64,000 bases of DNA, taken from contig CM022673.1 of the NCBI GenBank assembly GCA_012295275.1, positions 1,116,001 to 1,180,000 of the forward strand. Reading direction: 5' to 3'. This document shows, piece after piece, positions 18,425-63,317 of this stretch; the first letter of the stretch is position 1; each line of letters starts with the position of its first letter. The notes beneath the pieces are model-generated. The model was not told where the DNA came from and did no database searches. It saw nothing but the letters and a program-made list of their open reading frames with translations. A program made the position numbers and the translations under genes. This DNA is from Chrysomallon squamiferum. Taxonomy: Eukaryota; Animalia; Mollusca.

Positions 18425-19595
18425 AATTATAAAACTTACCATTTTATTTCACATACAAAGTCAAAGATATCAAAAATGTGTGGAACATGTTTTCACCAAA
18501 AAAAAACCTCTCAATACTCTTTTTGCAAAGCAGTTATATTTTAAATGTTTTTCCAAATCATATTTTAAAACATGAGAAATCTCTAATCTGGAAAAGGTCA
18601 ATGTTCAAAGTATCTTAAATGAATAACACTCAACAATTAAGGACTTTGTTATGTACAAAACAACTGAGAGACCAGCTTCTAGTTAGCAAGTTTACATTCA
18701 GACTCTGTTAGATTACGAACAATCTGAAATGATCAGGTTTATTACAGACCAAAACCTGATTCATTAATTAATTAAGTTTACCTTATGGACAAATTAAACT
18801 AGTAACAATTCAAAATGTGGATGAATTTGCTCTGGACAATACAGCTGGTGAACGAAAATTTAACAGTTACCGAGTTTGGTTACTGGATGTATTAAACAGT
18901 GAACTGTTAATATCTGAATACATTTTCTGTGGACAAAATAGCTGGTGGACCAGTGAGCAGTTACTGAATCTACGTATGACGTACTAGTTAATCAAACTAC
19001 CAGTAATTGTACTGTGGATGGTTTCTATCAGGATGAAAGGACAAAACAACAGTTGGTCTCACAAATGGATAAACATTTCTTACTTTTAAGGTAACGTTAA
19101 AAATTACTTATTCTTCTTGCAGTATTTTTTCTTCTATTTTCTGTTTATATATATTTAAAACAAAAGAGTGTGATACATAATTGTTATCTATAGTGTAACA
19201 TTAGAAATGACGTATTTAGTTATTATATTATAACCTCATCAAGAAAATAATATATGAGCACTTTAAAATATATTCAGAAAATCAATGGTGTGCGTTTGTG
19301 TGTGAAAGTGTGTGTAATAAACTCAAAACAGTTTTGACAAGACTGTAACTCAAAGACTTTTTAAATAAGGTAATATCATAAATACGTAATATTTAATCTT
19401 CTACATCAAGTAAAGCTATAATTATAAAACTTAGAAGATTCATCATTTTGTTTCAATTACAAAGTCAAAGATAACAAAAATGTGTGCAAAATTTTATCCA
19501 AGATAAAAATTCTCAAAACTCTCTTTGTAAAGCACAAACATTATGCAAGCAGTTATATTCTAAATATTTTTCAAATCACATTTCAAAACAGAGAA
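18425..19595 (+). repeat. Pair of diverged ~160-bp direct repeats (18425-18578, 19420-19595) about 1 kb apart
   Basis: Shared attataaaactta...tacaaagtcaaagata.caaaaatgtgtg...ctcaa.actct.tttg.aaagca...gcagttatatt.taaat.tttt...aaatca.attt.aaaaca. Confidence 0.75.
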
Positions 19596-20087
19596 CAATC
19601 AAAGTTTTATGCTGTTAATAATTTGGCAATCAAGTGTTATCTTTAACAGACAAGCAGAGGGCTTATCTTCAGCTAAAACGCTAAAAAGAAAATCTTCATA
19701 AAAAAAAGTCACATAATAAATTGTCTTAATTTTTGTCAATAACAAAACTGGCAATGAAATTCTGCAGGTTAAGGTCACAATATTGGAATGTTCAACAGAA
19801 ACATGCACAGAAATGCCAGCAACTTTTATTTTAGCTAAAGCATAAAGAAAACTAACTATGTGTAATTTTGGTTGTTTTCAAGACAAAATTCATACAAACT
19901 GATAATATAAAGGTATAAATACATGAATGTCATATCAATACATTTTAAATTATTTCTGTTATGGCTTTTTAAAATAGATATATTGTGCCATAGTTTTAAT
20001 TTAATTAATCTTTACTTAACATATTTGTTTGGGAATCCAGTATCCATAAATACAAAAAGTACAATTATAATTACAGTTCAATTTAAA

Positions 20088-20118
<31 letters not shown>

Positions 20119-22114
20119 CATTCATCAACCCACTTTTATTACTTGAACTGGAGTACAAATAAAGACTGTTACATATAATAAATTGAAAAGACAAAAAAAA
20201 AAAAAAAAAAAAAGGATGGTTTTACTCCCATGTTTTATTAACCTCACAGCAACAAAGTTGAAGCGAGTCCAAATTAAAAACTGTGTTTTACTTTTCAATC
20301 AACAACAAACAGAGCTCTCTGGAGCTGACCAGGCCTGCCACCAACTTTGTGACTTCAGCCTCTCCTTTTATTTGTATTCATCCAACGACACAGTGACAGG
20401 CTCCTTGTTTCACTTGTTTGCAGACACCTTGCCATGAAGTTCAAGAAATCAACACTAGTCATCTGAATGTTAAAAATACCAAGTGCAATCACACAGAGAC
20501 CAATTTAGTGTGCTTGACCCTCAATCTTTGTTAAAATGTGGAACCTGAAGAATACGTAGCACCTGCTGTTTCGGCTTTCAGTCTCGTTTTTCTGTTTGTA
20601 CACATTAACTGGATACTGTAACCGTGCTGGGAATTAGTTATTAAACTGTCGTGTGCTACTACTGTGACACAGTAATTGACAGAGAATTTTAAAATTGTCA
20701 AAGTGGACCAGTAACATTTGCATGCAATAAGCTGTTTGAGTTACCTGATACATGTGAAACGTTTTCTGTTTAATTTTTTTTAAACTACTTTTTTTTTTTT
20801 CCCATTTAATTTTACTATTTTAAATTTTTTCATGAGGTTCTTATTCTTCTGGTATATTTTCCTACTCTTTTTCACTTTAATTATTTAAATTGTTATAAAA
20901 TTTATATTTAAAAAAATACAAAGAAAAAAAAAAAAGAAAAAACACAAGCAATATACTTAGATATATTTCATACTATATTAACATAAATCATAATCATTAC
21001 TTTTTTTTTAAAAATACTGCCTTACCAGTATAATATAATTTGTTGAAATGCTTCTGTAAAACATATTTTTTTATCATGGTCTTTCAAATGTATTGAAATA
21101 TTCTTCACAGATTTGTGCATGAATGTTTTTTTACTTTTCTGGAAGGCAAATAAATAAAACTTTTAAAAAAAAATTAATTTTTTTTTTAGGAATAAATGAA
21201 AAACAAATTCAGGATTAATTAATGATTATCCAGAGTAGATTGGATTGGAATTTAATTTAATTTCTAACTGAAAGATACTTGACAGATTATAATTAATTAA
21301 TTTTCAATTAATTCTTATATACATGTGTATAAAAATGCAAACAACAAATGCATATCTTATTTGAAATAACAAAAAAAATAATTAAATTTTTTTTTAAATA
21401 TATTTACATGGAAAGATAGTAAGCATCCAGCTTTAACATTATAACAAGTACTGAAATAAGGATTTCAGTTTTAATAAGGTAAAGTTAACATTTACATAAT
21501 AAATGAAAAAAACCTTTTATATATATATATATATGTATGTATATATACACACACACTAAATACAATTTATTAAAACATTTTAATTTCTGAATTCCAAATA
21601 TGTTTTTAATTATACATTTACTTTACTATTTATATTAGAAAACAGGAGAGGCAGCAGTATCTTGTGAGGATATTCTAAACATGGAAACAAAAATAAAACA
21701 AGCTGGAAAGAGTTCCCTCCCTTCTCTATATCTATTAACAATGGTTACAATGATAGAAATAATAAGGAATAAGTTATTTATTTGTAAATTTATTTAATAC
21801 TATAATATTACTATTATAGTTATGATCAGTAACATTATAAATAAATAAGATTAATCAAATGATCATAAATGATAAATGATGAGTGTTCCAATAAATTTTA
21901 TAAAACAGATTCTTATTCATCTATAAAAGGTAATTTCACTGTAGCAGAATGTGCAAAAAATAATTATTATCATTAAACAGAAAATGTATCTTAATGTTAT
22001 TTTATTCATGAATGCGCATTATCATATATTTTCTGCTTACGTTATTTAGAAATAATGCACTTCATAGTTAATATCTTAGTGACATATTTTCTTAGTTTGC
22101 TGATGTATGTTCAC

Positions 22115-22147
<33 letters not shown>

Positions 22148-22539
22148 GCACACACATATTATTATTACTTACATAGAAAGACAAATAGATACTTTATATC
22201 TAATTTTTACTTTTTCGATTTTTGTTTTATTTGTTGTGTGTTTAAATGAACTGCAACACAAATTAATCAATGATTTACACAAAACATTTATAAAAAATCA
22301 AAAATGCTAATAATGCGAACTTAAATCATTATCTAATTCTATATAACAATATTAATTATCATTTAATTTATTACCTACTGTTAATGTCACATTAAAATAA
22401 TAATAGTATTATAAGTATTAGTAACAACAACACTGAACACAAATTCAAGTGAAATTACATGCTTTAATGTTTCAGTTTAAAATAACTATAAGGCCATACT
22501 TTGCAAATAAACATAAACAAATATCCCACAGATGGATCT

Positions 22540-22942
22540 TGTGGGAACTTTGTGAGCATGATACCACAGAATGTACAGCAAAGCGGTGTACGTAATATCG
22601 ATTTACTCAATCATAAATGATAAATTCGCCGGTTACCTCGCACCTGTTGGGTGGCACTTTAAAAACATTATTCACAATCAGTACATTTTTAGCAACATTC
22701 AGCGTTCGACATACTGCACAGAGAAGAAAAAATATTAAACAGAACTGCAAGTAAAATTACCCAAGCATAAAATTTCATTCCATTCTTCTTTCTGCGTATT
22801 CTAAATATGATATAAATAAATAAAAATGGTAGAATCAAAGCGGAAGTAATAGTGATGCAGTTCATGGAATATCTCGACCGATTCCGGTTCCGGTTCATTT
22901 ACAGCAGACAATAAACAAATTGTCCCATTTGGACCACTGAGC

Positions 22943-22988
<46 letters not shown>

Positions 22989-23070
22989 TTATTAACTTGA
23001 TTCAAGGACATGCATTTTGATTGCTAACGTTATTGCTGATATTCGAACAATATGCTTCCGTACTGACAGT
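22540..23070 (-). promoter_or_regulatory. CpG-retaining promoter/first-exon region of the left-hand minus-strand gene
   Basis: CpG rises abruptly after ~22 kb of CpG-poor DNA. ETS-type CGGAAGT at 22841 and tandem TTCCGGTTCCGG near 22882. Minus-strand donor candidates CGAG|GTAACC and ACAG|GTGCGA near 22632-22645. Confidence 0.5.
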
Positions 23071-23304
23071 TATCTAGAATAGATGAAAATTGAGTGTTCT
23101 TATACTGATCACAGAAATAATAACTTATGAATATGAAAGAGCTCACAAAATGCTAAAATTAAAATGTATATAAATATCAAAATTAATGCTAACATTGATT
23201 TTGTTACTTTAAAAATATAATATTATTATTTCTTCGGATAGAGAAGAATTCTAAGAAGTGTCTTAATTGGTTTAAAAATTAACTAAGTTAAAATGTATCA
23301 TAGG

Positions 23305-23387
23305 TTGAATGGTTGTGGAATGTGTGCAATGTAACCATCAATGGGAAGCATTGATGGTTACATTGCACACATTCCACAACCATTCAA
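23305..23387. repeat. Perfect 39-bp inverted repeat with a 5-nt loop
   Basis: TTGAATGGTTGTGGAATGTGTGCAATGTAACCATCAATG-ggaag-CATTGATGGTTACATTGCACACATTCCACAACCATTCAA. Confidence 0.95.
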
Positions 23388-23815
23388 AAAATGAGATCAG
23401 GAACGTCCAACAATCCTAAAAATATTATATAGGTTAAATATATTAATCATTATTTAGAGAGATAATGGACTTTGTATCGAACAGAATTACAGATCGATCG
23501 ACAAAAATTGTTATTACAATGACTATGGTGTATATTGCGTGTATATTGCATATCCAACAATTTGGTTTTTGTTGTTGTTCTGGGGATGGTTTTCAACTAA
23601 TTTTAATTAATCGTCAAAATTTAATATTAGTAACAAAGTGGGAAGATTAAACTAGTGACGTAAATGATTATTTCAGATGTTTAGGAGTAAATATATCTCC
23701 GAATATAACGATAATTTTACACACGTACGCAAAAACATATATTATTATTATCATCATCATCATTGTTGTTATTATTATTATTGTTGAATTGTTTCTTCGT
23801 TTGTTTTTTTCTTTT

Positions 23816-23872
<57 letters not shown>

Positions 23873-24394
23873 AAATTAATTATTTATTTTATATATTTAA
23901 ATAGCCCTAGGTTAGGATTGTACATTTTAATGGTTCTATGTTTATGAAATATTACTGTCAAAGATAAAATTTAAAATGAATCTGTTCCGTCCATCCGTCC
24001 ATGGGCATAAGGGAACAATTATGGTTATTCATAAACATAGTTATATTATTTTATTGTTTTAATTATTTATTATTATTATTATTATTATAATTATTATTAT
24101 TATTATTATTATTTTAATGGTGTATTTGATAAATGATACATTTAATAATCCGTCCATCCGTCCATTGGACAATGAAATCCATCAGTAAACACAGAGAATA
24201 TAAGATGTTTCTTGCAATAATAATAATTTACATACGTACATACTATATACATACTTAAATGCAAACAGACAGTTAGATATATAAATACAATTAAATCACA
24301 AGCAAAAGTTAGAACAATTTTCAAATTAGGATGTCCTTTACTTTATACGATATTGAACAATTCAGCAGATTTAAATTCATTTAAGAGAGTATTT

Positions 24395-24760
24395 ATTGAT
24401 GGTGATAATGACGACGACGACGACGACAACAATAATAATAACAGTTTTGATTACGATAGAAGCAGTAGCAGCAGCAATAGTAATATTATTAGAATTAGTA
24501 GTAGTAGTAGTATAGTAATAGTAGAAGCAGCAGTAGTAGCAGTACTAATGGCAGTAGTCGTAGCAGCAGTAGTAGCAGTACTAATGGCAGTAGTCGTAGT
24601 AACAAGAAGTAACAGAATAGTAATTATATTACTGTTATAGTAGTAGTAGTAGTCGAAGTAACGACAGAAGTAGTTGTAGTAGTAACAGAAGAAGTAGTAG
24701 ACGTAGCAGTAGCAGCATAATAATTATAGTAGTAGAAACTGAAGTAAAGAGTAATAATAA
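24395..24760. repeat. Compound trinucleotide low-complexity tract (GAC/AAT/AGT/AGC)
   Basis: Mixed (gac)n, (aat)n and (agt/agc)n with an internal ~33-bp duplication; it explains the spurious ORF 24353-24640. Confidence 0.85.
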
Positions 24761-27152
24761 TTTTTATATATTTAAAATGTGTGTGTGTGTGTGTGTGTAA
24801 TTTTTAAAAATACCATTTCCTTCGTCGAAAGTCAAAAGTGCACACTAACGCATGGCCATGGCATTTGGGCATATACATGGTTACTCGAGAACACATAATT
24901 ATGTGGATACACAAGAAAAACAACAGATGCATAAACACTGCCAGTCGTATTAACTGAACTTGGTTATCATCGAAACTTCAACAAATCAAGTTTAACACAC
25001 CAATAATATATTACTTCTATTTCGAAGAGGAAAAGTGTGTAATTTGAATCTACACATGGAATTTCTGAGCAAATTACGTTGGCGTGAAACTGTCACGAAA
25101 TATTTCACAACTAGATGATATTCTCGGGGAAAAAAAAAGAAAGAAAAAAGAAGAAGCATTGGAGAAAATTAACAATAAGAAAAACAAATCTATCTATTTA
25201 TATATTTGTACCGGTTCTGTTATTATTAAGGCGGAAATTAGTCAAAAAAGAAACGGACATACAACTTAATGCTTCAGTTATGCCTTAAAATGTGTAACAT
25301 TAGATACCTGAAATAGAACTTATGAATGTATTTTTGTTTCGAAATTTGATATCAAGGATCTAAATTTGATTCAGTCAGTAAACCGTTTTGAAAGTGAGAA
25401 ATGTTTTTTTTAAATTATTTTTGTTTTTATTTTTGTTTTATTTTTATTCTTTTAATGCAAAGGGTTAGTTTTGTTTTTCGTTTTGTTTTTGTTTTGTTTT
25501 TATTTTGTTTCACGTTGTTTTTTCCGAATTTTAATAGTAAATTTTGGTTCATTTGTCATTCTTAGGTTTTACATCAGTTTTTCATAAATAAATAATAACA
25601 ATGGCTATCACCATCATCATTATCATCATTATTAGTATCTTCATCATCATCATTGTCATTATTAGTGCCAGTAGTTATAATGGCAGTAGTGGTAGTAGTG
25701 GTAGTAAACCCACAGTGCCCATTTTCGTTTGACAGGTGCAAAATAAAGGTAACAGGTGATGAGAGAAGGAAGATCCGTTATCTTCTGTTTCTTCTAGGGA
25801 TGGTTCGAATATATGAAATTCTTTGATGATCACCATTATAAATATCCCACTGAATAATAATGCCAGATTACCTGCTTCAAATATATCATCTTTTAAAAAA
25901 AACAACAAAAAGGATACACCTACAGTATTTAATAATTCAGATACTTATATTTATTAGTATATATATATATATTTTTTTTTTTTTAAATGATCTAAATTTA
26001 TTGATAAATTAAGATATTACACCGTACAGGTAGCAATAATTTATAACAAGCATTGTATTAGGACAAGCAATAATAATAATAATATTGAAACAACAATAAT
26101 AATAATAATAACAACAACAACGACAACAAAAATAACAACGATAATTATGATTACTATTGTTGTTATTAACACTATTGGCATATTATTTTTTTGCTATTAT
26201 TATTATTATTATTAGTAGTAGTAGTAGTAGTAGTAGCAGTAGTAGTAGTAGTACACAAATGCTACAGTTAATAAATATAATGAAATAAATAAAAAAATTC
26301 TGACACTAAAAAGAAATTGTAAAATCGAATCAATGTCTAAAGTAATAATTACATGCACAGAGAGACATACGAAAACACACACGTACATATGTAGAGAAAG
26401 ACTCAAACAAACAGACAAACACATACACTAGAGGCAGACACACACTCACTCACGATATACAACTTAAACGCAAGTATAGGAATGCTGAATACAAATTAAA
26501 TACATATACAAACACATACATACATACATACACGATAAATACAATTTAAAAACACACACACACACACACACACACATGCACACACAATTTATGCTTATTT
26601 TTAAGTTATGACCTAAATGTATAATCTGATACAGCTAAAATAAATCGGTTATGAGATTTCTTGATCTATTATCACAAGTGGGGCATTCTCGTCTGCATTT
26701 ATCTTAATTATCCACTTTTGATAACTTTTATTTTCCCTTTCATTTTAATCACATGTGTATTTATTAATTTTTGCTTGTCAGTCTCAAAATAATCTTTAAC
26801 TGTTTTCTTTTTAGAATAGAGAAGAGAGGATGAATAAACGAGAGTGAAAGAAAAATCATCAGAGGGTGCTACAATGATATCATGCATGTGTTTGCGTGCG
26901 CATTAACGTGCGTGAATGTGAATATGAGAGAGTCGTAGACAAGGAGACAGAGACTGAGGAAATTAAGTATAAGAAAGAAAATTATTCAATGATTAACACG
27001 AAAGCTTCTTAATTTGCTCAAACCAAATGAATTGACATTCCTTTATTAACGAAATTATTCATTCGTCAGCTTAATAATAATAAACAAAATTATCAACCTT
27101 GTTCAAAATCATTTCTTTAGACAATATATAAACACACTTTCTATGTTTTGTC

Positions 27153-27187
<35 letters not shown>

Positions 27188-28065
27188 TTATTATTATTAT
27201 TATTTTTATTATGTTCAGTTTTTTTTTTTACCGTAAATGCTTTTTAACAATTATACGATATCATTTTATTTTCAGTAATGAAAACATTGAAAAAAAAAAA
27301 TAATAAAAAAAAAAATAATAATAAAAAATAAAAAATATCCAATAGGCTGTTTAAATATTAAAACTGAGAACGCTCCAGTTGTAAGTCTGATTCTTAGCAT
27401 GAGAAGACTTGTCAGTTTTAAGCGTAAAATAACACTGACGGAAGATAAAGAGTTATCTGGTATCCGTTTACGAAAAGGATGTGTTACACCAACAACGATT
27501 TGTTCCTTTTGTTTCTTCTTTACGACGATGTGCATTAGAAAAACCTGATAGTTTAAGCATTCCCTGTATTCTTAATTGTGTATAGGAAACTATTTCCGAA
27601 CCGGTTTTCAAAGTCACTGTTTCTAATTCTTCTCTTTTTAGATTTTAAATTATTTTTTTTTTTTTAATTGAGGGTGGATATAAATGTTCACCTATTAGTT
27701 TTAACTTTAGAAAAAAAAATAAAAATAATAATAATCTTTAAAATATATTATTTAAAAAAAAAATATATATATATATAGAAATAGAAATAAAACACTGAGA
27801 CTTTTAAAACATTTATACCGTTAATGTATGTATGTATGTATGTATGTATGTATGTATGTATGTGTGTATTTTTAGAATTTTGAATATTCTCTGTCTTATG
27901 TACTTCTGATTAAACTCTGTGCGTAGTCAGTAGGCGGGAACGCATGGACCCAGGAAGACAAAGTCCATTTATGACGACACAAACCCCGTAGACGCCGTTG
28001 ACGAGAAGGTGGATGTCATCCACGTTACCATTCCCCTGAAGCACGCAGTTCTTTTGTCATTCGTC

Positions 28066-28113
<48 letters not shown>

Positions 28114-28343
28114 GTGCGTGTGAGTGTGTCTGGGTGTGCAAGTATGTATGTATTTGTCTATAAGTATGTGTGTTCTTGCAGTTGTTTCTGTCTCTCACAT
28201 ACACACGTATTCATCTATTTGAAATATTTCAGCGAAGTTTAAACATAATGGCTTTATCAAAATTTTCTGTTACACAAAATAACTAAACGGAGAATACGAA
28301 TATTCATATCTTTTTAAAATATAACTAGACACAATATCTTTAA

Positions 28344-28369
<26 letters not shown>

Positions 28370-28376
<7 letters not shown>

Positions 28377-28715
28377 AATAAAGACAATATAACTGTCATA
28401 ATGTAGAAAAGGAAAAAAAAAATTAAAAAGAAAAATTATTAAATAATGTATGTCATCTGTAAAATATCAGATCGGCTATAGGAACTCATGCAGGATTATA
28501 TTATTATTATTATTATGTTTTTAATTTATACAAAAACAACAACAATCAAAAAAGAAAACAAACACAAAAAAAGTGTCGTAACTTGGATAATACAGAGTAG
28601 ACATCTGCAACATTTTGTTGTATAGATTTCTTCTTCAACGACACCACATTCATTTCTATGAACATTAAAATATTACTCAAATTCCTGAGTAAAATATTAA
28701 AAGAAATAATAATAA
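28370..28715 (+). repeat. Dispersed ~340-bp repeat, copy 1 (diverged interspersed element)
   Basis: Colinear with 42965-43300: gtaaaatatcagat..gc.atag.aactcatgca.ga.tata...acttggataataca.agta...tctatgaaca.taaaatatt. Confidence 0.8.
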
Positions 28716-29843
28716 TAACAATATAAATTCAGATTTGTAGATTGTAAATTTCATGATACAAATATTTTGCTTTTCACCGAGAAGAGGCAAATTAGAAGTG
28801 GTAGCAGTAGTTATAGTAGTCACGGTTTTAACTACACTGAGGCAAATGCCTCATACCGAAATTGGCCATTTTTATCATTTAATTTTATTTATTTATTTAT
28901 TTATTTAGATTTTAATACAAAGATTTTATTTTAAAAATATAAAATATAAATCTCTGTTCCGATTGCAAAAACGACATCCGCTGAATGAATTCGTTTTTAT
29001 CTGCGGTTACCGTTTGAAGCTGGAACTTCTGGGGGCCTTTATTACGGCTTTGGTAGTGATAATAAAACTAGTGGCATTTGAAGTACTAACAACGAGGATT
29101 GTAATTATCGAAAAAAAAAAAAAAAAGGAAAAAAGGAAACATTTTATTTAATGACGAAATGACAAGTTTTTTAACTGATAGTTATGTTATGTCGTGCATA
29201 AGATTAAGAAATATTAATGGATAATAATCACAAACATAAAAAAAAAAAAAAATAAATAAAAAAATACATTTTTAAAATTTCAGATTACATCAGTATCGCC
29301 GAGCATCGTAAGTAGCGGAATACGATATCCTCCGATATTTGCGATGGTTATTTATAGATTGTATTTGTTGTGGGCGAAGGTTTATCTCCTGTAACTGCGG
29401 GTCGTAACGTGATAACCGGTATTAAGTATCAAAACGTACATAAAAAAGATACACTAAACCGCGATGAAAACGAAAATGAAAGATACGACTTAATTAGGAT
29501 TGTCTGTTGATACTTTTACAACTGTTAACGTCTGTAACAAAAAAGAAAAAAAAAAAGTAAAGAAAAGAAAAAAAAGAAAAAAAAAGAAGGAAACATCCCC
29601 AAAAAGAAAGAAAATTTGATTTTTTTAAAAAGAAAAAAAGGGAAACAAAACCAAACCAAACAACGACAAAATAATCATAATAATAAATAAATAAATAAAT
29701 AATAAAAATAATATATAAATAAATAAATCCAAAAACAATTAAAAACAACAAAAAAAAAAAAAAAAACTACTACTAATATGAATACTAATACTAATACTAC
29801 AACGAAAACATTGACGATGGTGATGATGATGATGATGATGATC

Positions 29844-29877
<34 letters not shown>

Positions 29878-30165
29878 CAACAACAACAACAACAACATAT
29901 TTCAGTAACAAAGATTCAGTTTATACAAATAATATATATTTTATTTTAAGAAGGCCAAAATTTCACGAATTGAATATGACGAAAATATAGGTAAACACTT
30001 TTCTTGTCAATCTTGATATTTTGCACGTGTTAACTACTCCTTTATTTTATAACGAAACATATTCCTTACAACCAAAGACCCAAACCCAGAGAAGGATCCA
30101 ACATTACAAAAAAGAAGATGTCTTTATGAAGACTGGTTAAAGTTTCAGTATGAAACATATATCTG

Positions 30166-30208
<43 letters not shown>

Positions 30209-30574
30209 ATCTCTGTCTATATATATATATTATTATTGTTGTTATTCTTCTTATTATTACTATTATTATTATTATAATTATTAGAAGAAGAACAAGAAGA
30301 AATTAAAACCAAATAATAATTTATAAAAAAAGAAAAAAGTGACGGTGTTAATCTCCATCAATGGCGTGGCGCGTGTCATCCCACGCACAAACTACGTGAG
30401 AGTAATTTGAGAAGATCGATCTTTGACCTGTGATCAGCAACTGTTTCAGCTACCTATACTAACTGGGGAAAATGCAAAACGATGAAACAAGGAAATTCTG
30501 CTTCTCTGTCTTGATAATCACCTTTTTTTACCTGTCGTGGGCTTCCTTTGGCAGTTTCGTATTCAGGACATCTG

Positions 30575-30583
30575 TATATAAAG
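30575..30583 (+). promoter_or_regulatory. TATA box of the cytokine-like gene
   Basis: TATATAAAG lies ~90 nt upstream of the ATG at 30669, in a CpG-retaining block. Confidence 0.6.
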
Positions 30584-30668
30584 ACGATGGAACTGAAATG
30601 AAATTAGATTTGAAAAATAAGTTAAACAGGTAACGAGTTGTCTTTGTCAGCGTAAGCTTTATCTCATA

Positions 30669-32946
30669 ATGAACTCGTTTCAGTGTAAGTAGTTTAATTA
30701 TTGCTAATATCAAGTTAGTTTATGTTGAATTTGTTATTTATTATTTCACACACACATATCATCGTAATTAATAAAATTATTGTTAAATATTTTCTCCAAA
30801 ACGTATTCCAAATTATTTATTTGTTTACTTAAATATTTGTACAGTCTATTAAAGTTATAACTTTATATTTTTTAAATTATCCAGATATTCATAGAGTAAA
30901 TAATACTTATATTTATAATAAATAATTTGAAAAGCTCATTTAACAATAATTTAAGTAATTAACGGGATAACATTTTTACAAAATAAATAAATAAATTATC
31001 ATATTTACTGCACTGTTATTATATACATATAAGTACAAATTTAAATCATTACAAAGCTAATTTATTTGATAATAAATATATCAGATACATCACTGATTAG
31101 AAAAACACGATAAAAGATGTTTTCGTTGATCAATGTCAAAAAGAAATGTATTTTACTTTACTTTATTTTATTTATTTATTTATTTTTATACTTACTTGCT
31201 TACTTATTTTTACGCTTTTTGTTGTTGTTGTTTTGGGTTTTTTGTTTGATCTTTATGGGTTTTTTTTTAATGATTCTTATTTCGATTCTATTAGTAATAA
31301 ATAAAAAGGATAAAAAAAAAAATATTAATGACATTTGTATGAATGACAAGGTAACAACTACTGTTATTTAAATAAAATGACTATGTTAATGATAATGATG
31401 ATAATTATAATGACGGTGATGATGAAAATATCATTAATAATAACTAATTTTACCACATTTTTAAGTGTAGACTTGAATTTATAAAAAAAAAAAAAAAAAA
31501 TCATTATTAAATTAAATAATAAGTTATTTTTTGAAATAATAAATAAATTTACATCTATTTTATTTATATTATTTGTCTTCAGACATCTGCATTTTGGTCG
31601 TCTGCGCCACAACGAAGATGTCGTTTTCCAACGTCATTCCGTCAACTGTATCCAACGAGCCGGTGACAGCCCCCACAACGTTGTCCAGTCAGGAAGTTGC
31701 GTCTCTGAAACTGATCTTTGGAAACTGTACAACTCTGCTTCATATTGCTGAAAGTAACATGAACAACACTTTTAACTATGTGGTAAGCTTCTTCTTCTTC
31801 TACCTAATTATTATGAGTGTTGTTATTGTTGTTGTTGTTATTATTATTATTATTATTTTCTTTTCCTTTTTTTTTCTTCTTTTTTTTTTCGGTTATTCGG
31901 TTAAATATATAGAAAGAAAAAAGTTTTGTTCACAACACACAAACACGTAATAAAACTTATAATAACAATTATGTGCTAAGACATTTTGAATAATTATTTT
32001 CCATTTTAAGGTTTATATTTTAATGGCAATGATTCAGTTAAATTACTTTTAAAAACACGAGAAATTTTTTTTTTTAATTTTTAATTTTTTTTTTAATTTA
32101 ATATTAACTGCATTTGACATTGATTAATTTTATTTTTTACCACAACGCTTCTAGTTATTATTACTGTCGTTGCTGTTGTTATTCTTCTTATTCATATAAT
32201 TATTATTATACTGACATTTTACTATTTTAAAACATTTATTCGTATATTTGAGGGTGGTGATTCTTATCTGCCTTTCTGCAGAGGTCCATGGATATTCAGA
32301 AACATTTTTATCCTCTGTACGTCCTTATTTTATTATTTCATGTTTTGGTTTGTGAAACTTATTTCTCATCCTTTATCATATCTCTTGTTTTAGTGCAAAC
32401 GTTGGTGTGAATCATATAATCAACCGGCGGTCACGTGCTGCAGTACTATTCACTCATTGGCTGCTACCGGTGATAATCAAAATAGTGAGGACGAAAAAAC
32501 GTCTTCGTCAGAGGTATTTAAGATTTATAAACTAAATTATTTTTAGTATTAATTATTTCAGTTAGTACAGTAACATTATTAAATATAATTTAACATTTCT
32601 TTTATATAATTTAACTTTTCATCTTAGATTACTTACGATTTTTTTCTTCTTCTTCTTCTTACTATTATTATTTTTAAATTGTTCAAATAGGATAAACTGG
32701 AACAGATTTACACTACGGTCAACAAATACCGAGAAATCGTACAAATTCTAGCCCAACACGCGGAGAAGAACCTCTGCCAAATCCACTGGTCACGGGGTAT
32801 TCCCTGTGTGTACCCGACAAACTGTGTGACGACAAAGGACGATAAAGAGAAAACATTCTGTTACTATCGAAATGTAAAAATTAACATGGATAGTGTGTGG
32901 TTACTTCTGAAAGACGCTGTAAGTAATTAAAATAAATAATTAAGTA

Positions 32947-32992
<46 letters not shown>

Positions 32993-33384
32993 TAAATAAC
33001 ATATTTTTTTTTTTTTTTTATATATATTTTTTAGGGGTGTTGGGGGTTTTCTTTTCTTAATAAACAACAAACAAACCAACAACAAAAAAACAAAACAAAA
33101 AACCCCTACGAAATAGCAAAATTATTATTATTGTTATATTGCTCTTGTTGTTCTTGTTGTTTATTTTTCTTTCATTCTTTTTCTAATTAATTAAAAATGT
33201 ATTTTATTTTCTGTTATAGCTGAACTTAATAAATCGTGAGTCACAAACGGTAACGTCATCCACATCAGAAGATCCCAGTGGCGAAATGATGGAAGGACTG
33301 GCTGACTTAATGAATCTATCACGTGCCCTGATTACCATACAGGAAGTTACCACATCTTTGAAGACTCTCCAGAATTGGGACTAG
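30669..33384 (+). CDS. Secreted 242-aa protein, 5 exons; putative long-chain four-helix-bundle (IL-6/G-CSF/GH-like) cytokine
   Basis: Exons 30669-30684 (ATG AAC TCG TTT CAG T|gtaagt), 31583-31782, 32394-32513, 32691-32918, 33220-33384 (TAG). All have canonical splice sites, phases 1,0,0,0, and no internal stop. Protein: MNSFQYICILVVCATTKMSFSNVIPSTVSNEPVTAPTTLSSQEVASLKLIFGNCTTLLHIAESNMNNTFNYV|CKRWCESYNQPAVTCCSTIHSLAATGDNQNSEDEKTSSSE|DKLEQIYTTVNKYREIVQILAQHAEKNLCQIHWSRGIPCVYPTNCVTTKDDKEKTFCYYRNVKINMDSVWLLLKDA|LNLINRESQTVTSSTSEDPSGEMMEGLADLMNLSRALITIQEVTTSLKTLQNWD*. The gene model is well supported; the family call is inference. Confidence 0.85.
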
Positions 33385-34914
33385 GCCCTCTAATATGAGT
33401 GTATCAGAGATGCATTGAAAATTGAATGGAAGATAACGATCGTGAAAAAGATGTGTTACTAAAAATAATTATTTGATTTTTCTATACTATACATAAATTA
33501 TTTTCTTATTTATTTTTGACTTTATCATATGCTCCACAAAAAAAAAAAAAAAAAAAAGAAAAAAAAAAGAAAGAAAGAAAGAAAGGAAACAAAAGATAGC
33601 TTCACATAGATCCATCACGAATCGGAAAACCTGTAAGCATTTAAATATGTTAGAAAAACTTGTATTTAAATGTTTAAAATTAATTGGAATATTCGTATTA
33701 CATAAGTCCCAATAGCTTATATTTTTGAACTATACTCTGTGTATTGATGCTTCAGAATTAAATAATTCAAAAAGATGGGTGGGTCCGTACTTTATAGAGT
33801 AAAACAAAGTTTAAGATGTACGGTATTTTATATATTATGTATTGTTGTTGTTGTTGTCATTATTATTATTATTATTATTACTGATCAAGTTTAGCTATAG
33901 CAGAAAACATAATACGTCATTATTTAAAAAATACCATACAGTTTCGTAAAATTAGTTATATATTCAGTTTCGTTTCGCCTGCAGTTTGAATACAAGTTGT
34001 AGGCATTTTCTTTTTCTTCTTTTCTTTCTTTTTTTATTATTACGTTTTTGTTTACTAACAGTTGTGTGTCTTTGTGTATAACATTTTGTGTACAATAATA
34101 GCTGTTTTGTGGTATTATTTTTTATTTTTTACTATTACTACTACTGCCGCTACTACTAATACTACTGCTACTAATATTACTACAACATTTTGTATTTTTT
34201 GTATCAATTTCAGAAAGGTTTTTTAAGCGATAGTTACAACAGTGTTTTAGTAAGATGTTAAATTGTGTGTTGTATGCTGTATTTAATGTACAGAGACTCT
34301 TCAAACGTATTTTGCATTGATTAATAATTGGAAAACAATGTAAATGTCAATGTATGCAATATTTTGTGAATTAGATTTACTTTTTTTTTCATCTCATACA
34401 TCTACCTTTAATATGCTGATGTAATTATAATATTTTATAAATTAGACTTATTATTGTTATTTTTTTTTAAAATTCTCATTTTTATCTATAAAAATTGCAT
34501 GTTATTAATAATTTCATCAACAATAATTTTAAAAAAGCATTTATTTATTTATCTATTTTTCATTTATTTTATTCTTAACAATAAACCAGTTATAATAAAT
34601 TCGTAACTTAATAAACTGAACTAATTATTAATTAAATGAAGTTTGTGAGTTTATATAGTAAGACATACTGTCTAACATATACCGTTGTGTAATTAGTTAA
34701 ATTAATGTAATCTGTTTCTTCTTCTTCTTATTATTATTATTTACTAATATTTGTATGTCTTTTTGATGGAGCATTTCCATTTTTGTTATTTTTAAAAACT
34801 TTTTGTATCACATTTACTTTTAAAATGTACACATCTTTTTATCTCAATAAAGCATTTATATTTTTATTTGGCTTTCTGACTTGAGTTTGTTCTGAACAAA
34901 AGATGAAATAATAA

Positions 34915-54091: not shown

Positions 54092-55377
54092 TATAAAGCA
54101 TTAAGTTACAACTGGCCCTCTTGTATCAGATCTCAACTTTATGAACAACACACTAGCATCCTCTTTATTTCTCCCGTTAGCGAAATTACACAGATTAAAT
54201 CCTTACTTATTACTCTGTAATGTTGTGCAAGTCAACAACAAAAAATATATTTACGTATGTCTTTTACTACTTGTTATATATCTTAAAACTTGATGCAAAA
54301 CTTTGAAAGAGACACTCGTGGGAAAATCCAGTTGTAATTGACATCGTGAGAACAAAGATGCCCTGCTATTCGATTCAGTTCACTCACTTGACGGTAACCA
54401 AAAAATAAGACAACACACTATATTCAGTCAAATAACGAGTTAAAATGTATGCCGTTTTATTAATAATGATTATATTTCAGTATCTGAGTCAAAATATTAG
54501 ATTATAACTCAAATTAATTAGACTTATGCGTATTGTACGTCAACAATGTAAAACAAAGGCGGCGAACAGAACAGCCATTTTCCCATGTTCGGGACAAAGC
54601 CCATTGGTACATTCCTTATAAGGAATGCAGGTGTTCCCACGACAGTCAACCGGTTATGCTTGGCTGGTTGCAAATGACAAGCGATCATGTCTTAGCTGAG
54701 ATGTGATTTCACACTCTGCTATGTCTGCTTTTCTGATAAATTACACATACTGTCTAAGAAAGATCAAAACATTAGTGGCTAATATATTACGTATTTTTCA
54801 TTCAACTTCTAGGTCGATCAGTGCATCATTACCACCTATCGCTTCATCAGTTCATGAGTTTGATTTTTTCCTCCCTAGCCTAAACTAGACTTCGCAACAC
54901 AAAATGTTGTTTTGCAGATTGATCGATGACCTTACAATTATTTGCACCTATAACTGGGTACTTACAAAATGACTCTTGCAATGTCGATATAGCTCCCGTG
55001 TTGTACGTTGAGGTTTCGGAACTTGACACTTCTTCAATATCTGAAAGGCTTCAGCAAAAAGACATTATGTCAATGCCTTATTGACTTTTGGAGATAATTA
55101 TTCAAAGAAATGCAATAAACGAATTCATTGCTTTAAATTTATAAAATATTGTCAAGCAAACAAATAATTATGTATCGAATAATTTATAACTTTTGACAAA
55201 TACACGAAAAACTTTCCAGCAATATGGCCGAAATATTCACCACACATGCGCATGTTTTTGTTCCTATTTCCGGTATTGAGAAAGGTGTTGTTGGACAGAT
55301 GTCATTTCGTTTTGTAAAAAATATTTAACATTATAAATTTTATATAGATACAAATAATCTATTTCGCTAAATTAATC
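54092..55377. promoter_or_regulatory. Divergent (head-to-head) promoter region of Su(H) and MINDY
   Basis: The start codons are ~1.3 kb apart and CpG is retained. YY1-like GCCATTTT (54574) and AATATGGCCG (55221), NRF1-like CATGCGCATG (55245), ETS ATTTCCGGT (55266), CCAAT (ATTGG, 54603). Confidence 0.75.
54317..54641. promoter_or_regulatory. Cluster of CSL/Su(H) binding sites
   Basis: CGTGGGAA 54317-54324, CGTGAGAA 54345-54352 and TTCCCACG 54634-54641 match YGTGRGAA; a variant TTCCCATG is at 54580-54587. Confidence 0.7.
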
Positions 55378-57346
55378 ATGGCCTCTTCAGAAGGCCCATG
55401 TACAAATACAGCAGACTGTGGTTCCGACGATCCAAAAATAACAAGTCCTAATCTGAACACCTGTAAAAATACAACACAAGTTTTACAGAGAAATGAACAC
55501 CAGGACACAATTCCTCCTGCTGCATCTACTGAGACTGAAGATGACAGTTTTAAAAACATAGGTATCACTTATTTAAATGCTTCAAACGTTTTGGTGGTCA
55601 CTGGTGTAGAATTTTATTATTTGGTTGTTCAGAATTAGTGATGTCAATAGAGTGAATTATCATATTGTGACTTTGACTATGAGTAACTATATTATGTAAT
55701 ATATTATTTATTTTATTGATACTAACTAATGATGCAAGGGTAGATGAACTGACTAGTCAGAAATGTTAATAATAAAATACAGGTTTTATTTGGTAAAACC
55801 TCAGAAATGTCATAAATAGAAATAAACCGGGATCACTTTGTCTGCACAGGTGTCGGTTAATATTGCAAATGGGTTAAATGATCTGACTGTAATTGTATAT
55901 ATAATTTGTTTCAGAGTTAACTAACTGTACAAAATGCATCAGTAATTAACTGTATATTGTTATTGCTGATCATATTAATGTATCAAAACAATTAATCTTC
56001 TACATAAATGTTAGAGAAAACCATAAACACTGTTAATAATATTAATAGGATACATTTGATGTTTGTTTTCTATATATGGATTCTTTTGAAAGTAGTATGG
56101 CAAAGCCACTTAAATCTGACATAGCAAATAAATAATTTCAAATTATATTTTAACTGGTGACTGTTTTCACTGGTCTTGAAATAAATTAAACTGGTGTTGT
56201 GCTGTGTCATATTTATATTTAATAAATTAAATAAATGATTATGTATTCAAGTCATTGAGGCGTTCATATTGATAGCAGACAAGAAGAAGAAGAAAATATT
56301 GGGCTATCTTCAATTTCCAGACAGTCTTTTTTATTTTATAAACACATTTTAAATAAAATGACAGAAGGGATGATACAGACATCCTTACAGACTTTGTTAT
56401 TTTCTTTTTCTTTTATTTTTAACAGTGATTATTTTTGACTGCTATTTAAGCCATATGAATGAACTTACTGTATATACCATTGTATCATTTAAGCAGTATG
56501 AAAATATCACGAAAGATACATATGATGAATACATTGCATGTACATTTATATCAATATACGTATATTCATATCTGTATATATTTCTTGTACACTGTATGTA
56601 CATTTATATTAATGTATATATATTTATATCTGTTCATATTTCTAGTACATTGTATGTACATTTATATCAATGTATGTATATTTACATCTGTGTATATTTC
56701 TTTATTTAGATGATACTGAAGAAGGAAGTGTAAATTCGAGTAACCCATCTCAGGTAAAAGATTCAACAGACGAAGATGGTACTCCATCACATATTCGTTC
56801 TGTGGAGCAAGAAAGCACATCATCAGACACAAACAACTGTTATGAGGACATTTCCTTGGATCAGATCAGTTTTGGTACAAACAGCGACCTTGTTAAACTA
56901 GAAGATACTGTAGATGCAGACTCAGATAACTGTAGTCAGTCTAATGTTGTGGACTTACCTCCCTTGAAAGACAAATCGCAAGAAAAAGATAGCATTTGTG
57001 GTGGTGCTTCTGCGAAGGACGAGAATGGTCAGTGCGTGTACTACATTAAGTGGATAATGTTTGACAGTAACAAAGTGCCCATTATTACTCAGAACGAGAA
57101 TGGCCCCTGTCCTCTGCTGGCAATCATGAATGCTTTGCTGCTGAAAGGAAAGGTTAAACTGGCTCCTATGATTGAGATGATCACATCTGAACAGTTGATG
57201 ACATACCTAGGAGAATGTATTCTGGAGAGCATGCCCCAGGTAGGACTTAATTAACTCTGACCTGTATTTGGTAACGGTGACTTAAATTAATCTTTCATCA
57301 GTTGGGCAGTTTTTTGACATTTTTGATTTATTTTGTTTTGAATACG

Positions 57347-57400
<54 letters not shown>

Positions 57401-59797
57401 TGTTTGTGTTTTATTGTTACACTGTATGGTGGGTTTTTGTTACACATTTCCTCTGTGTATATCATTTCACATATTGATAAGCAACAAATAAGGGACAGCA
57501 TTTCAGTTGATGTCTGTCTCAGTGTCTGTTTTGAAGTCATTTTGGATGGATGAAAACCAAAGTATGAGCAGTATGTCATGATAGTAATTCTCATTGTTTT
57601 TATTTTTTTACTGAATATTTATTGTTAATATTGTTCAGTAATTTATTTATTACACATTTAGTATTGTTTGAAGTTATACTACAATATATTTATGTAACTT
57701 ACTGGTGCTTCTGAAAATTATTTACACTATTTACACTATTTACATTAATTCCTTTTCATATGCTGTTTTATTATTTGTTGTATTTCCATGGTGTGCATTG
57801 ACAATGTATATATAACCCAGCAATTTTTTGACAGCATTCAAGTGACTCTTTTGTATAAATAGGTATTTTAAATTCAGTCATTAAAATGTATTCTAAACAG
57901 TAAAGATCTTCTGAATTTATAGATAAGTAGATGTACATACACGTATATAATTTCTTTTTTTGCTTTCAGGATCTGTCTGAAAATGTCAGACCCAATTTTG
58001 AACAAAACATGCAAGATGCAATGTCTGTGATGTACAAATTGCAAACAGGAATTGATGTTAATGTTAAATTTACAGGGTATGTTTAAAATGTTATAAATTT
58101 TCTTAATTATTATTTAGTAAAAAAAGATATATTAATTTTTATTTTACTGGAGAATATATGAAAAAATCTGTTTATAATCAGTCATTAATTCTAGATTGAT
58201 AACAGTGGAATAATATAGTTAAACTAGCTACATGAATTTTATCTTTTGAATCAGGGGTTGCCAAACCTTTTGTCTCACTGACCCCTTTGATGATGCCATC
58301 CAAATCTGGAAACCTTCTTCCAGAGATCAGTTTTTCTCTCATTGGTTCCCCAATGACCCTTCTTTCTGAGTCCTTGAAAGAATCCACCAACCACTTTGGC
58401 AATTCCTGATTTGTATGTTGTTCAGAATTTCAATAACTATTAACAATACTGACATTTTTATAATATCTGTACTCTCTCTCCATACATGTGTGGACAAAAT
58501 CAATTTATATCCAAAAAATGTATACATATATATATTTTCATCTGGCATAGTGATATGTAATGTTTGTTTTTTTTTGTTTTTTTTACTGCAGAGTGAAAGA
58601 TTTCGAGTATACTCCTGAATGTATTATATTTGATCTGCTGGAAATGTGCCTCTACCATGGTTGGCTGGTTGACCCTCAGGACGTAGTCTGTGTCAAAGCT
58701 GTAGGCACATGTAGCTATAATCAGCTTGTTGAAAAAATTATTGCTCAGAAAAGTTCTGACAAATCAGAGTTAGTACATGAAGGTCAGTTTTAAAATACTT
58801 TTATTACTTTTATTTAAAAGTACTATCATCACAACAGCAATAATATGATAATAATTTATTATATTAATTAAATATTGTGTTAATTTAGATTTTTCAGTGC
58901 AGACTTTACTTTATGTTAAAAATGATAAAAACTGAATTTCTAGTCAAGCCAAAATAATTCAGGTAGGAGTTATTCCTCTTTTCTCACAAACTGCAGAATG
59001 TAGTTGATTTAAAAAAATGTCAGGTTTGAAAAATTAGTGCAATGTAAAAATAATATAGACTTTTTTGAGCAAAAAAAAAAAATCTGTTATATCCTAATGA
59101 AATTAATAATAATTTTTTTTAGATAAATGTTTGTAATACCATGTATGAAGAACAATAATAAAAAATTGTACAGATATTAATAATCCAGGATTTTCAGAAA
59201 CAATTTATTTTATTTTATAGTGACTTTAATAATTTAAATATATTAAAAAAACATTTCTGTTACCTAACAATATTACTGGTAACAATTTTTCATAATATAC
59301 ATTTTGTTATCTTTCATTATTTATGTTACCTCCTATTAACGTTTTTAGAAACAAAATTTATTATATCATATGGAAAATAATAATAAAATTGCCATAAAGT
59401 ATATTTAAATATTCTTTTCCTAACATTAAAATCCCCCTCCCCCCCAGTAAAGCAATTTTAAAACAAATTCCCATTTGTTTAGCAATAAAAAATTCAGTTA
59501 CCTAATATTAACATCAATAATTCAAAAATTTTGGAAACAAAATTACTGTTGATTTTTGTTTCAGGTCTAATAACATTCAAAATGCTTAATAAAAAGTTTC
59601 TGTTATCTCATGTAACAAAGAGTGTTATATGTTTCTTGTTTTATTTTTCATTAGCTCTCGTTGCTGAGCATTTTTTGAATGAGACTGCCGCTCAGTTGAC
59701 GTATTATGGTCTGTGTGAACTGGTGACAACCGTACAGGAAAATGAACTGGCTGTGTTTTTCCGAAACAATCATTTCTGCACACTTTACAAACACAGT
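55378..59797 (+). CDS. MINDY1/2: MINDY1/2-type (FAM63A/B) K48-specific deubiquitinase, first 5 coding exons; gene continues beyond the window
   Basis: Exons 55378-55561, 56710-57239, 57970-58076, 58592-58782, 59655-59797 join in frame with GT-AG sites. Catalytic Cys motif IITQNENGPCPLLAI, then LQTGIDVNVKFTGVKDFEYT, LYHGWLVDPQ, SYNQLVEKII, and catalytic His motif VFFRNNHF. The acidic disordered N-terminus is typical of MINDY1/2. Confidence 0.95.
56536..56700 (+). repeat. ~58-bp minisatellite (about 3 units) before MINDY exon 2
   Basis: tgtacatttatat.aat.ta..tatatt.a.atctgt..atatttct repeated. Confidence 0.7.
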
Positions 59798-60756
59798 GTA
59801 AGAAATACTGATTTATTTTATCTTTATATATCATATGTTAATATATACACAGACAGATATATATATATATCTGTATTTATTTGTGTATGTGTGTCTGTAG
59901 GTGTATGTTTGAGTATATATGTGTATGTGTGTTACATAAATTTCATAGAATTCACAGTTGATGACTAAAATACTTTATTATATGTTTCCTTTCTATGTGT
60001 GTGTGTGTGATCCAGTAACTATCCCTTCATCTGAGACCATGATACCTAATTTGCTACTTACCAGAAAATGTATATAAAGGGTATTGCCAGTTGTTAAAAA
60101 TAACTCTGAAAGAGTGTCTGTAGCTTTCTACTTAATATCACAAATAACCCAACTTGCTTGATTTAATAACTTAATACACCAAACAATTATTGTTTCATTG
60201 TGTACATACGTTTTCTGGTTTTATTGTTAAAACAAACTATTTTCATCAGTTGTCAAATGTTTTATTGTACATAATGAATGAGATTATAAACTGAATGTGT
60301 AATGATTTATTATACACAGATTGAAAGTTTTTCCAATACCCAATTTATTTACAGAATAAAATTTAAAAAACTAACTGTTGATGATGTATAATGGTAAATT
60401 GTTCCGTGTGCCTATGCTATTTTTGGAACCAAACATTAAGAAAACAAAAAGAAATTATAATTCTTGAACATTATAAAGAAACACAAATGTTTGGGAAAAA
60501 ACCCACAGAAATCTTCAGTATACATACATACATACATATGTACATATAAAAAATTCCAATAAACAAACAAGAATGAAATTAAATTTATTTAATAGGGTTC
60601 ATTAACTAGTACTGTTACTTAATAACAAAAAACATTATATATGTGTAAAATTGCGATAATAAAATTATTACTGTTTTTACATAAATGTTTTGTATATGAA
60701 AAAGAGTTTTATTCCTTTGTTCTTAACATTAATTTACTTTAACACTTAAAATATAA

Positions 60757-61055: not shown

Positions 61056-61205
61056 TGTACACTTCCTATAAAATTATAGCAATTTATTGCTAGAATAAAA
61101 TAAATTTAAAAATATTAAAAGAACAAAACAAATACCAATGCAATATTGTATATATGATTCAGTACAAATAAAAATAATATATAATCCCAAGAAAATACTT
61201 CAAAA
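60757..61205 (+). repeat. Diverged ~245-bp tandem duplication in the 3' UTR region of the nested gene
   Basis: aagtata.agttgaata(ATA)n...acttc.tataaa..atagcaa.ttattgctagaataaa...aatattgta.atatgattca.tacaaataaaaataa occurs twice. Confidence 0.8.
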
Positions 61206-61260
61206 TAATAACAATTATTTTGAATTGATATTTTTGATCAGTACATTTTGGTAATAACAC

Positions 61261-62616
61261 TCATAATAACAGTAAAATCAACATGGCAATAGATGATGAT
61301 ATTGCCAAGGCATACAGGAATTCACACTTTCCACCAGAAGCTGAGCTAGGTTCAGAAACAGTTTCAAGGTCATTTGAGGTGACTGCAGTAGTTTCAGCAT
61401 TTTCAGTGGTTGTGATAATAGGTGCTGTTGTTGTCATCACTTCTGTTGTTTCAGCAAAAGTAGGTGATGATAATGTTGTTGTTTCTTCAGTTGTCGGTTC
61501 TGTTGTTGTAGTTGCTGAAAAATTCGACAATATATTTTAGTTTAAAAAAAATATATTATTAGTGAGTTGTTAAGAATGTGTAGAATGATAATTTTACATG
61601 GATTATAAAATTAACTGGGTTTTTTGGGGGGGGGGGTTTAATAATTGAAATAATATATAATTTATTTTTTATCTTTATTAATATTAATTAAAGCATTACA
61701 TGTAAAAATTTACTTTTAATGTATAGATATTAATCAGAAGTTTACTATGTAACTCATGAAATGTTTTTATTTTTGTTTATTTTTTTTTTTCTCCTCTCCA
61801 GACTTTTAAATTATAAATACAGAAGTGAGATTTATGATGTATCTTTTATACAAACAGATGTGTACTAGGTATATAACATTCACATTTCATATAAATTAAT
61901 GAATTAATATCTGTTGTGAGACATTGTGAAATCATTTCTGGACAGGGTCTGTTATGTGGACAGTTGTTATGCAAGTGTGTTTGAAACCACAGATGTGATA
62001 AATGTACACTTTACACTGTTCAAAGAAACATGAGATAAAACACAATTAAACCTGAGACAGTGTACACTTTCTGGATGAGTTCTTGTGTGCAACGTGATGA
62101 ACACTGTTTTAATTGATAGTGTTTGTGTAAATACCTTGGAGTTCATTAAAATAACATCTTTGATAAAAATATTAAAGCAAAACAAAAAATACAAAATAAA
62201 GTAAAATGATATAAAAAAAAAACAATAACAATAAAAGTTTAATGTTGTATATTAATATATGTTTATATTAACTATATGTTTCAGTGTATTTTTATTTAAA
62301 AAAAAAAAATTCTGATTAATTTTATTTTAATTTAAGAAAATTTGATTAAGAATACTGCAAAATTAGTTTGATTTTATACAAATGAATGCAAAAATACATC
62401 AATAAACATAATTATAGATTATTATCTATTTTAATCTTTTTGCCTAAAATTGATATACTTGTTGTAGTTGTTGTTGGTGATGTAGTTGGAGACACATCAC
62501 AGTTGAAACGTCCATCCATTGAATATCTCTGTTTCATCACTGTATAGGCTTCAATTAACTTCTGGTCACAGTTTTGAACTCTTGGTTCCATGCAGTTTAC
62601 ATACTGTTCAAAAGCT
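61261..62616 (-). CDS. 3' two exons of a nested antisense gene: Cys-containing helical domain, Thr-rich mucin-like stalk, C-terminal GPI-anchor-like signal
   Basis: Exon 62616-62459 (AFEQYVNCMEPRVQNCDQKLIEAYTVMKQRYSMDGRFNCDVSPTTSPTTTTT) splices in phase 1 to 61514-61261 (TTTTEPTTEETTT...SEPSSASGGKCEFLYALAISSSIAMLILLLL*). Upstream exons were not found in the window. Confidence 0.8.
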
Positions 62617-63317
62617 CTGAAGTAAATAAAGAAAGAAAGAAAGTTTGAAAAGGAAGAATATAAAGAAGAATAAATATCATTATGCAACATCAAACATTTA
62701 GTTCATTTGTGTTTGCACCTTAAGATACTCAAAAACAGGACTGTTTATTGAAAGTAAAGATGAGCTGCAATAAAAACTCACATTTGTGCATTGTTCTTAA
62801 ACATTGGTTTAAAATACATATTAAGTAAATAATAGTAATAAGCAAATAAGCAAATACATAGAAATGATACTTAGTCCTGTATGCTCATTTGATTCATCTC
62901 AGTTTTAAATCTTTTGTTTTCTGTAAATCAAGAACTGAAATATCTGTTTATTCATTATTACAACATTTGACTTAAGTCACACAGTACATGTTGCTGTCAA
63001 CAAACAAAACGTGAACTTTTAAGTCAACAAAAATGTTACAAGCTTAAAGCTGGAACATTCTTTAGTGCATGACAGCTGAGAAAAATTCTCATTGTTCCTG
63101 CTTGATGAGCATTTTCGTTTACATTACATAGTCAGCCTGGGTTGTTATTGATTGAAACCTTCCATGACAATACAGTTGTTTTCTAATTTGGAAGTAAATG
63201 AATTTCAGTTATCTGGTAAATGTGAGATTCACTTTGTGGGCATTCTTGATTTGAAATCCGCTTCACACACTCTCACACACACAGACAGACACATAGACAC
63301 ACACACACACAGACACA

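Follow-up and report, generated by a model that had tools for sequence, protein, structure and literature searches.

The 64,000 nt of Chrysomallon squamiferum DNA analysed here (contig CM022673.1, positions 1,116,001 to 1,180,000 of the forward strand; called the window below, position 1 being its first letter) are AT-rich, with a G+C content of 0.21-0.33 per 2 kb. Near their centre lies a five-exon gene, hereafter the candidate gene, whose exon layout and predicted helices suggest that it probably encodes a secreted cytokine of the long-chain class I helical type. Genes for Su(H)/RBPJ and for a MINDY1/2-type deubiquitinase are located downstream of it. The coordinates of all these features are reported in Table 1.

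Table 1. Features of the candidate gene and of its surroundings, in window coordinates; p values refer to helical periodicity and are uncorrected, seven segment tests having been made.
Feature	Position	Strand	Description	Evidence
Distal exon, 3' end	19059..19090	+	spliced onto exon 2 (31583); donor GT at 19091	X1 RNA contig
TATA box, putative proximal promoter	30575..30582	+	94 nt before the ATG	sequence
Coding exon 1 (predicted)	30669..30684	+	residues 1-5, where the signal peptide begins; donor GTAAGT, phase 1	sequence only
Exon 2	31583..31782	+	remainder of signal peptide, then N-terminal arm rich in Pro and Thr, then predicted helix A	X1 and X2 RNA contigs
Predicted helix A	~31687-31782	+	residues 41-72, end of exon 2	p=0.041
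Exon 3	32394..32513	+	C-x3-C at its start; 40 aa with 4 Cys, predicted to form the A-B loop	X1 RNA contig, contiguous there with exons 2 and 4
Exon 4	32691..32918	+	predicted helix B, Cys-rich B-C spacer, uncertain helix C	RNA contigs
Predicted helix B	32691-32768	+		p=0.028
Cys-rich B-C spacer	~32769-32849	+	27 residues or more, up to four Cys	
Uncertain helix C	32850-32918	+	end of exon 4	
Exon 5	33220..33384	+	last part of helix C, C-D loop rich in Ser and Thr, predicted helix D, stop TAG	sequence
Predicted helix D	33274-33372	+	residues 207-239	AlphaFold single-exon model
Su(H)/RBPJ	49009 to 38911	-	coding matches	Pfam TIG_SUH
MINDY1/2-type deubiquitinase gene	55348-59800	+		Pfam match near 56.6-57.3 kb

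A first-pass annotation, made from the letters of the window alone, had proposed for the candidate gene coding exons of 16, 200, 120, 228 and 165 nt, separated by introns of phases 1,0,0,0. This chain is exact in the DNA: all four introns are bounded by GT and AG, and the spliced exons form, as claimed, a stop-free frame of 242 aa. G+C content is about 0.38-0.46 in the exons and 0.16-0.23 in the introns. The protein also has the hydrophobic N-terminus ascribed to it and no other transmembrane segment, since 19-residue windows with a hydropathy above 1.2 start only at residues 3-8. The predicted signal peptide comprises about 21 residues; the mature chain, from residue 22, has a computed mass of 24.8 kDa and an isoelectric point of 5.0. 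There are 11 cysteines, 9 of them in the mature chain, and three N-glycosylation sequons. An in-frame methionine, Met18, is encoded within exon 2, at 31618. The sole variant seen in exon 1 is synonymous; exon 2 has two, one synonymous and one not.

Transcription was analyzed by comparing the region 30200-33000, beyond which exon 5 lies, with contigs from four runs, three of them being RNA of one study. In the X1 contig (1191 nt, depth 9.5) exons 2, 3 and 4 are contiguous, with exact joins, and introns 2 and 3 are therefore spliced; the X2 contig passes directly from exon 2 into exon 3 and retains 70 nt of intron 1, while run X4 gave no real cover of the region and is uninformative. Past the exon 4 donor, where its match ends, the X1 contig extends for another 277 nt, a length that fits exon 5 followed by about 112 nt of untranslated region. 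The candidate gene is real, transcribed and spliced. A non-coding or read-through transcript with an open frame arisen by chance would suit the low expression and the lack of any orthologue in the searched collection, Gigantopelta proteins included, but is very improbable in view of three exons spliced exactly in frame, the richness of the exons in G+C, the 242 stop-free codons and the strong helical patterning described below.

The RNA thus bears out the junctions proposed for exons 2, 3 and 4, while that between exons 1 and 2 finds no support, the X1 contig entering exon 2 from elsewhere. Its loose 5' end exactly matches 19059-19088, with AG following; the match is unique in the window and was found in none of 100 shuffles, and the resulting junction, from 19090 to 31583, skips 12.5 kb. 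An in-frame stop of the distal exon precedes exon 2, and the joined form would accordingly start at Met18 and comprise 225 codons, without a signal peptide. If the distal exon is contiguous, it contains as many as 9 ATGs, and a 64-codon frame overlapping Met18 starts at one of them, so that the distal-exon form looks like a poorly translated read-through.

The CpG landscape of the window bears on the same question. In the first 22.5 kb the ratio of observed to expected CpG is 0.09-0.44; it rises to 0.75-1.58 between 22.5 and 34.5 kb and falls back to 0.05-0.53 between 34.5 and 54 kb, which delimits a 12-kb CpG-rich domain (22500-34500) with sharp edges and CpG-poor flanks, housing both the candidate gene and the TATA box. 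Since the distal exon belongs to the CpG-poor domain and the candidate gene to the CpG-rich one, the X1 form is probably a read-through from an upstream unit, and possibly a leaderless isoform, the promoter proper to the candidate gene being presumably the TATA box. For the coding exons the ratio is 1.0 in the candidate gene against 0.36 in Su(H). According to the available part of a study on gastropods (PMC11050768), housekeeping genes are methylated and inducible ones are not; because inducible genes form the poorly methylated class there, the CpG richness of the gene body agrees with an inducible gene. Inside the CpG-rich domain, no gene was identified in the 8 kb preceding the candidate gene, a stretch that may be regulatory. 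The promoter scan found no STAT, IRF, AP-1 or CSL sites, and the motifs present occur at chance level and are not evidence: two kB-like sites (equalled in 133 of 1000 shuffles) and one half-site of the cAMP response element (342 of 1000).

Two further parts of this landscape deserve mention. A short minus-strand frame (22689-22898) on the border of the CpG-rich domain includes a signal-peptide-like stretch and has no Pfam match above the cut-off. The CpG-poor region 1-22000 resembles a methylated gene body or a very long untranslated region; none of the 9 frames tested there gave a Pfam match above the cut-off.

A protein made from Met18, with exon 1 unused, would lack the signal peptide and would be intracellular, or released by damaged cells, like leaderless cytokines. 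The sole contig showing a 5' junction points that way, its distal exon containing an in-frame stop that leaves the 225-codon frame, and fish IFN-a, in the part available of the report on it, includes 5' splice variants that lack the leader and signal intracellularly. We nevertheless consider this arrangement improbable: it rests on one contig of depth 9.5, the distal exon lies in another unit, within its CpG-poor body, and carries the ATGs and the overlapping frame mentioned above, and the TATA box, the ATG and the canonical exon 1 donor together provide a signal peptide in the correct phase. Two further GT donor-like sites, at 30630 and 30652, lie downstream of the TATA box and upstream of the ATG; splicing of either to exon 2 could yield a leaderless transcript from the proximal promoter.

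The ability of the predicted protein to form helices was evaluated by using amphipathicity, segment periodicity and AlphaFold, the latter run on single exons without alignments. The best four amphipathic 21-mers of the mature chain start at residues 62, 118, 179 and 206. The score of the fourth-best non-overlapping window was reached by none of 300 shuffles, and by none of 500 at each of the widths 18, 21 and 25; in the control, four stretches of Su(H), the corresponding scores were reached by 24, 26, 134 and 83 of 200 shuffles. Beta periodicity is not enriched in the mature chain. The model of exon 5 consists of coil over residues 1-18 of the exon and of a helix over 19-51 (33 residues), the helix having a predicted local distance difference test (pLDDT) of 92-98, a value that refers to an isolated peptide and has no control rate; it would correspond to the loop-plus-helix-D shape of a long-chain cytokine. 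In the model of exon 4 a helix over 2-34 (residues 114-146 of the protein) is followed by a beta hairpin and by a 9-residue helix over 66-74, with a mean pLDDT of 50.5.

The first-pass annotation had placed helix A in exon 2, a loop in exon 3, helices B and C in exon 4 and helix D, after a loop, in exon 5. Helices B and D are supported in these positions, and so is A (segment p values for A and B are in Table 1), which may, judging from segment periodicity, run about 10 residues into exon 3; helix C as drawn shows no significant periodicity (p=0.23), and the same analysis places it probably at about 174-196 rather than at 164-190. A helix-B register motif has a single match, at residue 114, the second of exon 4; this comparison is post hoc, the motif being found in 21 of 20000 shuffles and in none of 14 other proteins compared, mostly Su(H) homologues. 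With regard to predicted loop lengths, the A-B loop (about 30-40 aa) fits a long-chain cytokine, the C-D loop (about 15-20 aa) is borderline, and the B-C link (about 27-35 aa) is longer than the class allows, unless regarded as an insert.

Relatives were searched by using single exons of 40-76 aa as queries, which are less sensitive than the full-length protein, so that distant relatives would be missed. Exons 2, 4 and 5 gave no match to PDB sequences at E<=10. A word search of 5.8 billion sequences, covering longer proteins only, confirmed none of the 7 candidates obtained for exon 4 and none of the 33 for exon 2; in the ESM Atlas the top score for exon 4 was 0.80, at the level of a lead only, and exon 2 gave nothing. 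No paralogue of the candidate gene occurs within the 64-kb window. Two matches of exon 4 among 1.84 billion representatives, both to tandem-repeat proteins, were judged to be due to chance. One of the 151 stretches of a metagenome scan, L001, which is ciliate-like, was rejected as well, the common feature being just a short Cys motif. L001 is of some interest in itself: it has C4A4 telomere repeats at both ends (L001:1-1935), like a complete ciliate nanochromosome, and encodes a small secreted or membrane Cys-rich protein.

In the absence of sequence relatives, the comparison with known cytokines is based on gene structure and predicted fold. The genes for vertebrate IL-6, G-CSF, IL-11, GH and EPO have introns of phases 1,0,0,0. 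This layout is found in the candidate gene, where introns 2 and 3 are seen spliced and introns 1 and 4 are predicted. When compared with the IL6 sizes given in the first-pass annotation, four of the five exons agree within 10 nt, and exon 4 exceeds its counterpart by 81 nt, which equals the 27-residue B-C spacer. At 242 aa, the protein falls within the 150-280 aa of long-chain class I helical cytokines. The class II layout (IFN/IL-10), with phases 0,0,0,0, is not found, the first intron being of phase 1.

Within class I, the candidate cannot be equated with IL-6, whose four conserved cysteines, Pfam IL6 profile and conserved neighbourhood are all lacking. The first-pass annotation had likened the opening of exon 3 to that of IL-6, but the candidate has C-x3-C where IL-6 and G-CSF have C-x5-C; the spacing is that of EPO, and 'class I helical cytokine' is for this reason a safer designation than 'IL-6'. 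IL-6 differs further in having a cysteine before helix B, which the candidate lacks. The B-C link is short in IL-6 and G-CSF, whereas exon 4 of the candidate is longer by about 27 codons and encodes a Cys-rich spacer; there is no sequence or profile match to either. The five-exon 1,0,0,0 layout is common to EPO/TPO and to GH/prolactin, and exon 3 of EPO opens with C-x3-C too; no sequence similarity to these proteins was detected, and the long helix D predicted for the candidate resembles that of the IL-6 group. With the insect Unpaired proteins (Upd1-3), the ligands of Domeless, the likeness lies in the proposed role, that of a secreted ligand of an invertebrate IL6R/gp130-like receptor; no sequence similarity to them was detected, and they are restricted to insects according to the available part of PMC13203501. 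Neither Su(H) nor MINDY is among the 13 IL-6 neighbours listed in a study of lamprey IL-6 (bioRxiv 10.64898/2026.04.02.716188), a gene that likewise escaped BLAST.

On these grounds the candidate gene probably encodes a long-chain class I helical cytokine, of the IL-6/IL-11/G-CSF/EPO/GH kind. The assignment draws its strength from the agreement of exon sizes, phases and helix positions taken together. The same agreement argues against the main alternative, a secreted helical protein rich in disulfides that is specific to the lineage, has another fold (acting in mucus, shell or signalling, for instance) and would resemble cytokines in exon layout by chance; so does the fact that helix B begins, in the register expected, where exon 4 does, a post hoc observation. 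The absence of any family or structural match, the weak helix C, the long Cys-rich B-C spacer and the nine cysteines of the mature chain would all be accounted for by such a protein, and in a comparable lamprey screen the phase pattern alone was right in 1 case out of 14. We regard this alternative as unlikely, though the most serious of those considered.

Several results weigh against the cytokine assignment and are collected here. No RNA depth was found over 30576-30763, where exon 1 lies, in any of the three RNA runs, and the predicted signal peptide has a short hydrophobic core. None of exons 2-5 matched a Pfam family at E<=1. Foldseek gave no match at E<=0.001 with the exon 4 model, a search that is uninformative at pLDDT 50; the model itself, at low confidence, turns most of 'helix C' into a beta hairpin and a 9-residue helix. 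Periodicity is not significant for segment C (164-192) and for segment D (213-239; p=0.63) as drawn, and is present in the exon 3 'loop' (p=0.013). Any helical protein can beat its shuffles in the amphipathicity test. A B-C spacer of at least 27 residues and a C-D loop of about 15 are both atypical. Intron phase alone is weak, because in the lamprey screen, which was aimed at genes with phases 0-0-0-0, of 132 genes kept 14 were secreted and a single one was the interferon sought. The cytokine is, on balance, a well-supported candidate and not a demonstration.

The existence of such a ligand would fill a gap in molluscs. Oyster proteins have been named IL-12p35-like and IFN-like. No published report of a molluscan class I helical cytokine was found, in a search that left out subscription journals and supplements. 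In the available part of a 2026 survey (PMC13203501), IL6R-like receptors, JAK and STAT are reported together in molluscs, with no IL-6-type ligand, and other ligands are suggested as drivers. An immunome of Aplysia, in the portion at hand, comprises one JAK, one STAT and five SOCS, and the cytokines named there are MIF, progranulin, TNF and IL-17 only; the accessible portions of PMC12162339, PMC1963337, PMC13524488 and PMC12943528 hold nothing further on ligands.

That the candidate cytokine is also a ligand of a snail receptor of the IL6R/gp130/Domeless type has, in our estimate, an even chance. The chances are equally balanced for the fuller proposal, which assigns the protein to an ancient branch of IL-6/G-CSF/EPO-type cytokines in protostomes, represented here in a gastropod; the protein would carry a new Cys-rich insert between B and C, might also exist as a leaderless splice form, and would supply the ligand so far missing from the IL6R/Domeless-JAK-STAT pathway of molluscs. 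Expression would be inducible, from the TATA promoter, and the signal peptide would export the protein. Helix A would end exon 2, the long A-B loop would occupy exon 3, helices B and C would respectively open and close exon 4, and exon 5 would provide the C-D loop and then the long helix D. The four amphipathic helices would pack up-up-down-down into a long-chain bundle, with a disulfide-bonded insert of 27 residues between B and C, and the chain would be stabilized by disulfides and N-glycans. Binding to an IL6R/gp130/Domeless-type receptor would then activate JAK-STAT.

Given its vertebrate cytokine exon blueprint, the candidate gene provides a specific protein to express and to test on snail cells, and the combination of exon layout and fold provides a search recipe for other molluscs, farmed species included. 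If the assignment is true, these cytokines have inherited both their fold and their intron layout from the last common bilaterian ancestor, and the five-exon 1,0,0,0 cytokine gene is older than the protostome-deuterostome split.

As for the neighbouring genes, the candidate gene and Su(H) are convergent, with about 5.5 kb between their coding ends. The variable N-terminal exon of Su(H) was matched by 3 of 186 candidates, from Gigantopelta aegis (84% identical), Liolophura sinensis (49%) and Haliotis rubra (41%), which places the host among the gastropods near Gigantopelta (Neomphalina). Su(H)/RBPJ and the MINDY1/2-type gene are arranged divergently, with a CpG-rich patch between them at 54-55.5 kb. 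Farther on, at 61200-62700 on the minus strand, there are exons of a gene with sub-threshold Pfam matches only; they encode a helical segment that contains Cys, a stalk rich in Thr and a hydrophobic C-terminal end, which give the product the look of a membrane- or glycosylphosphatidylinositol-anchored, mucin-like protein.
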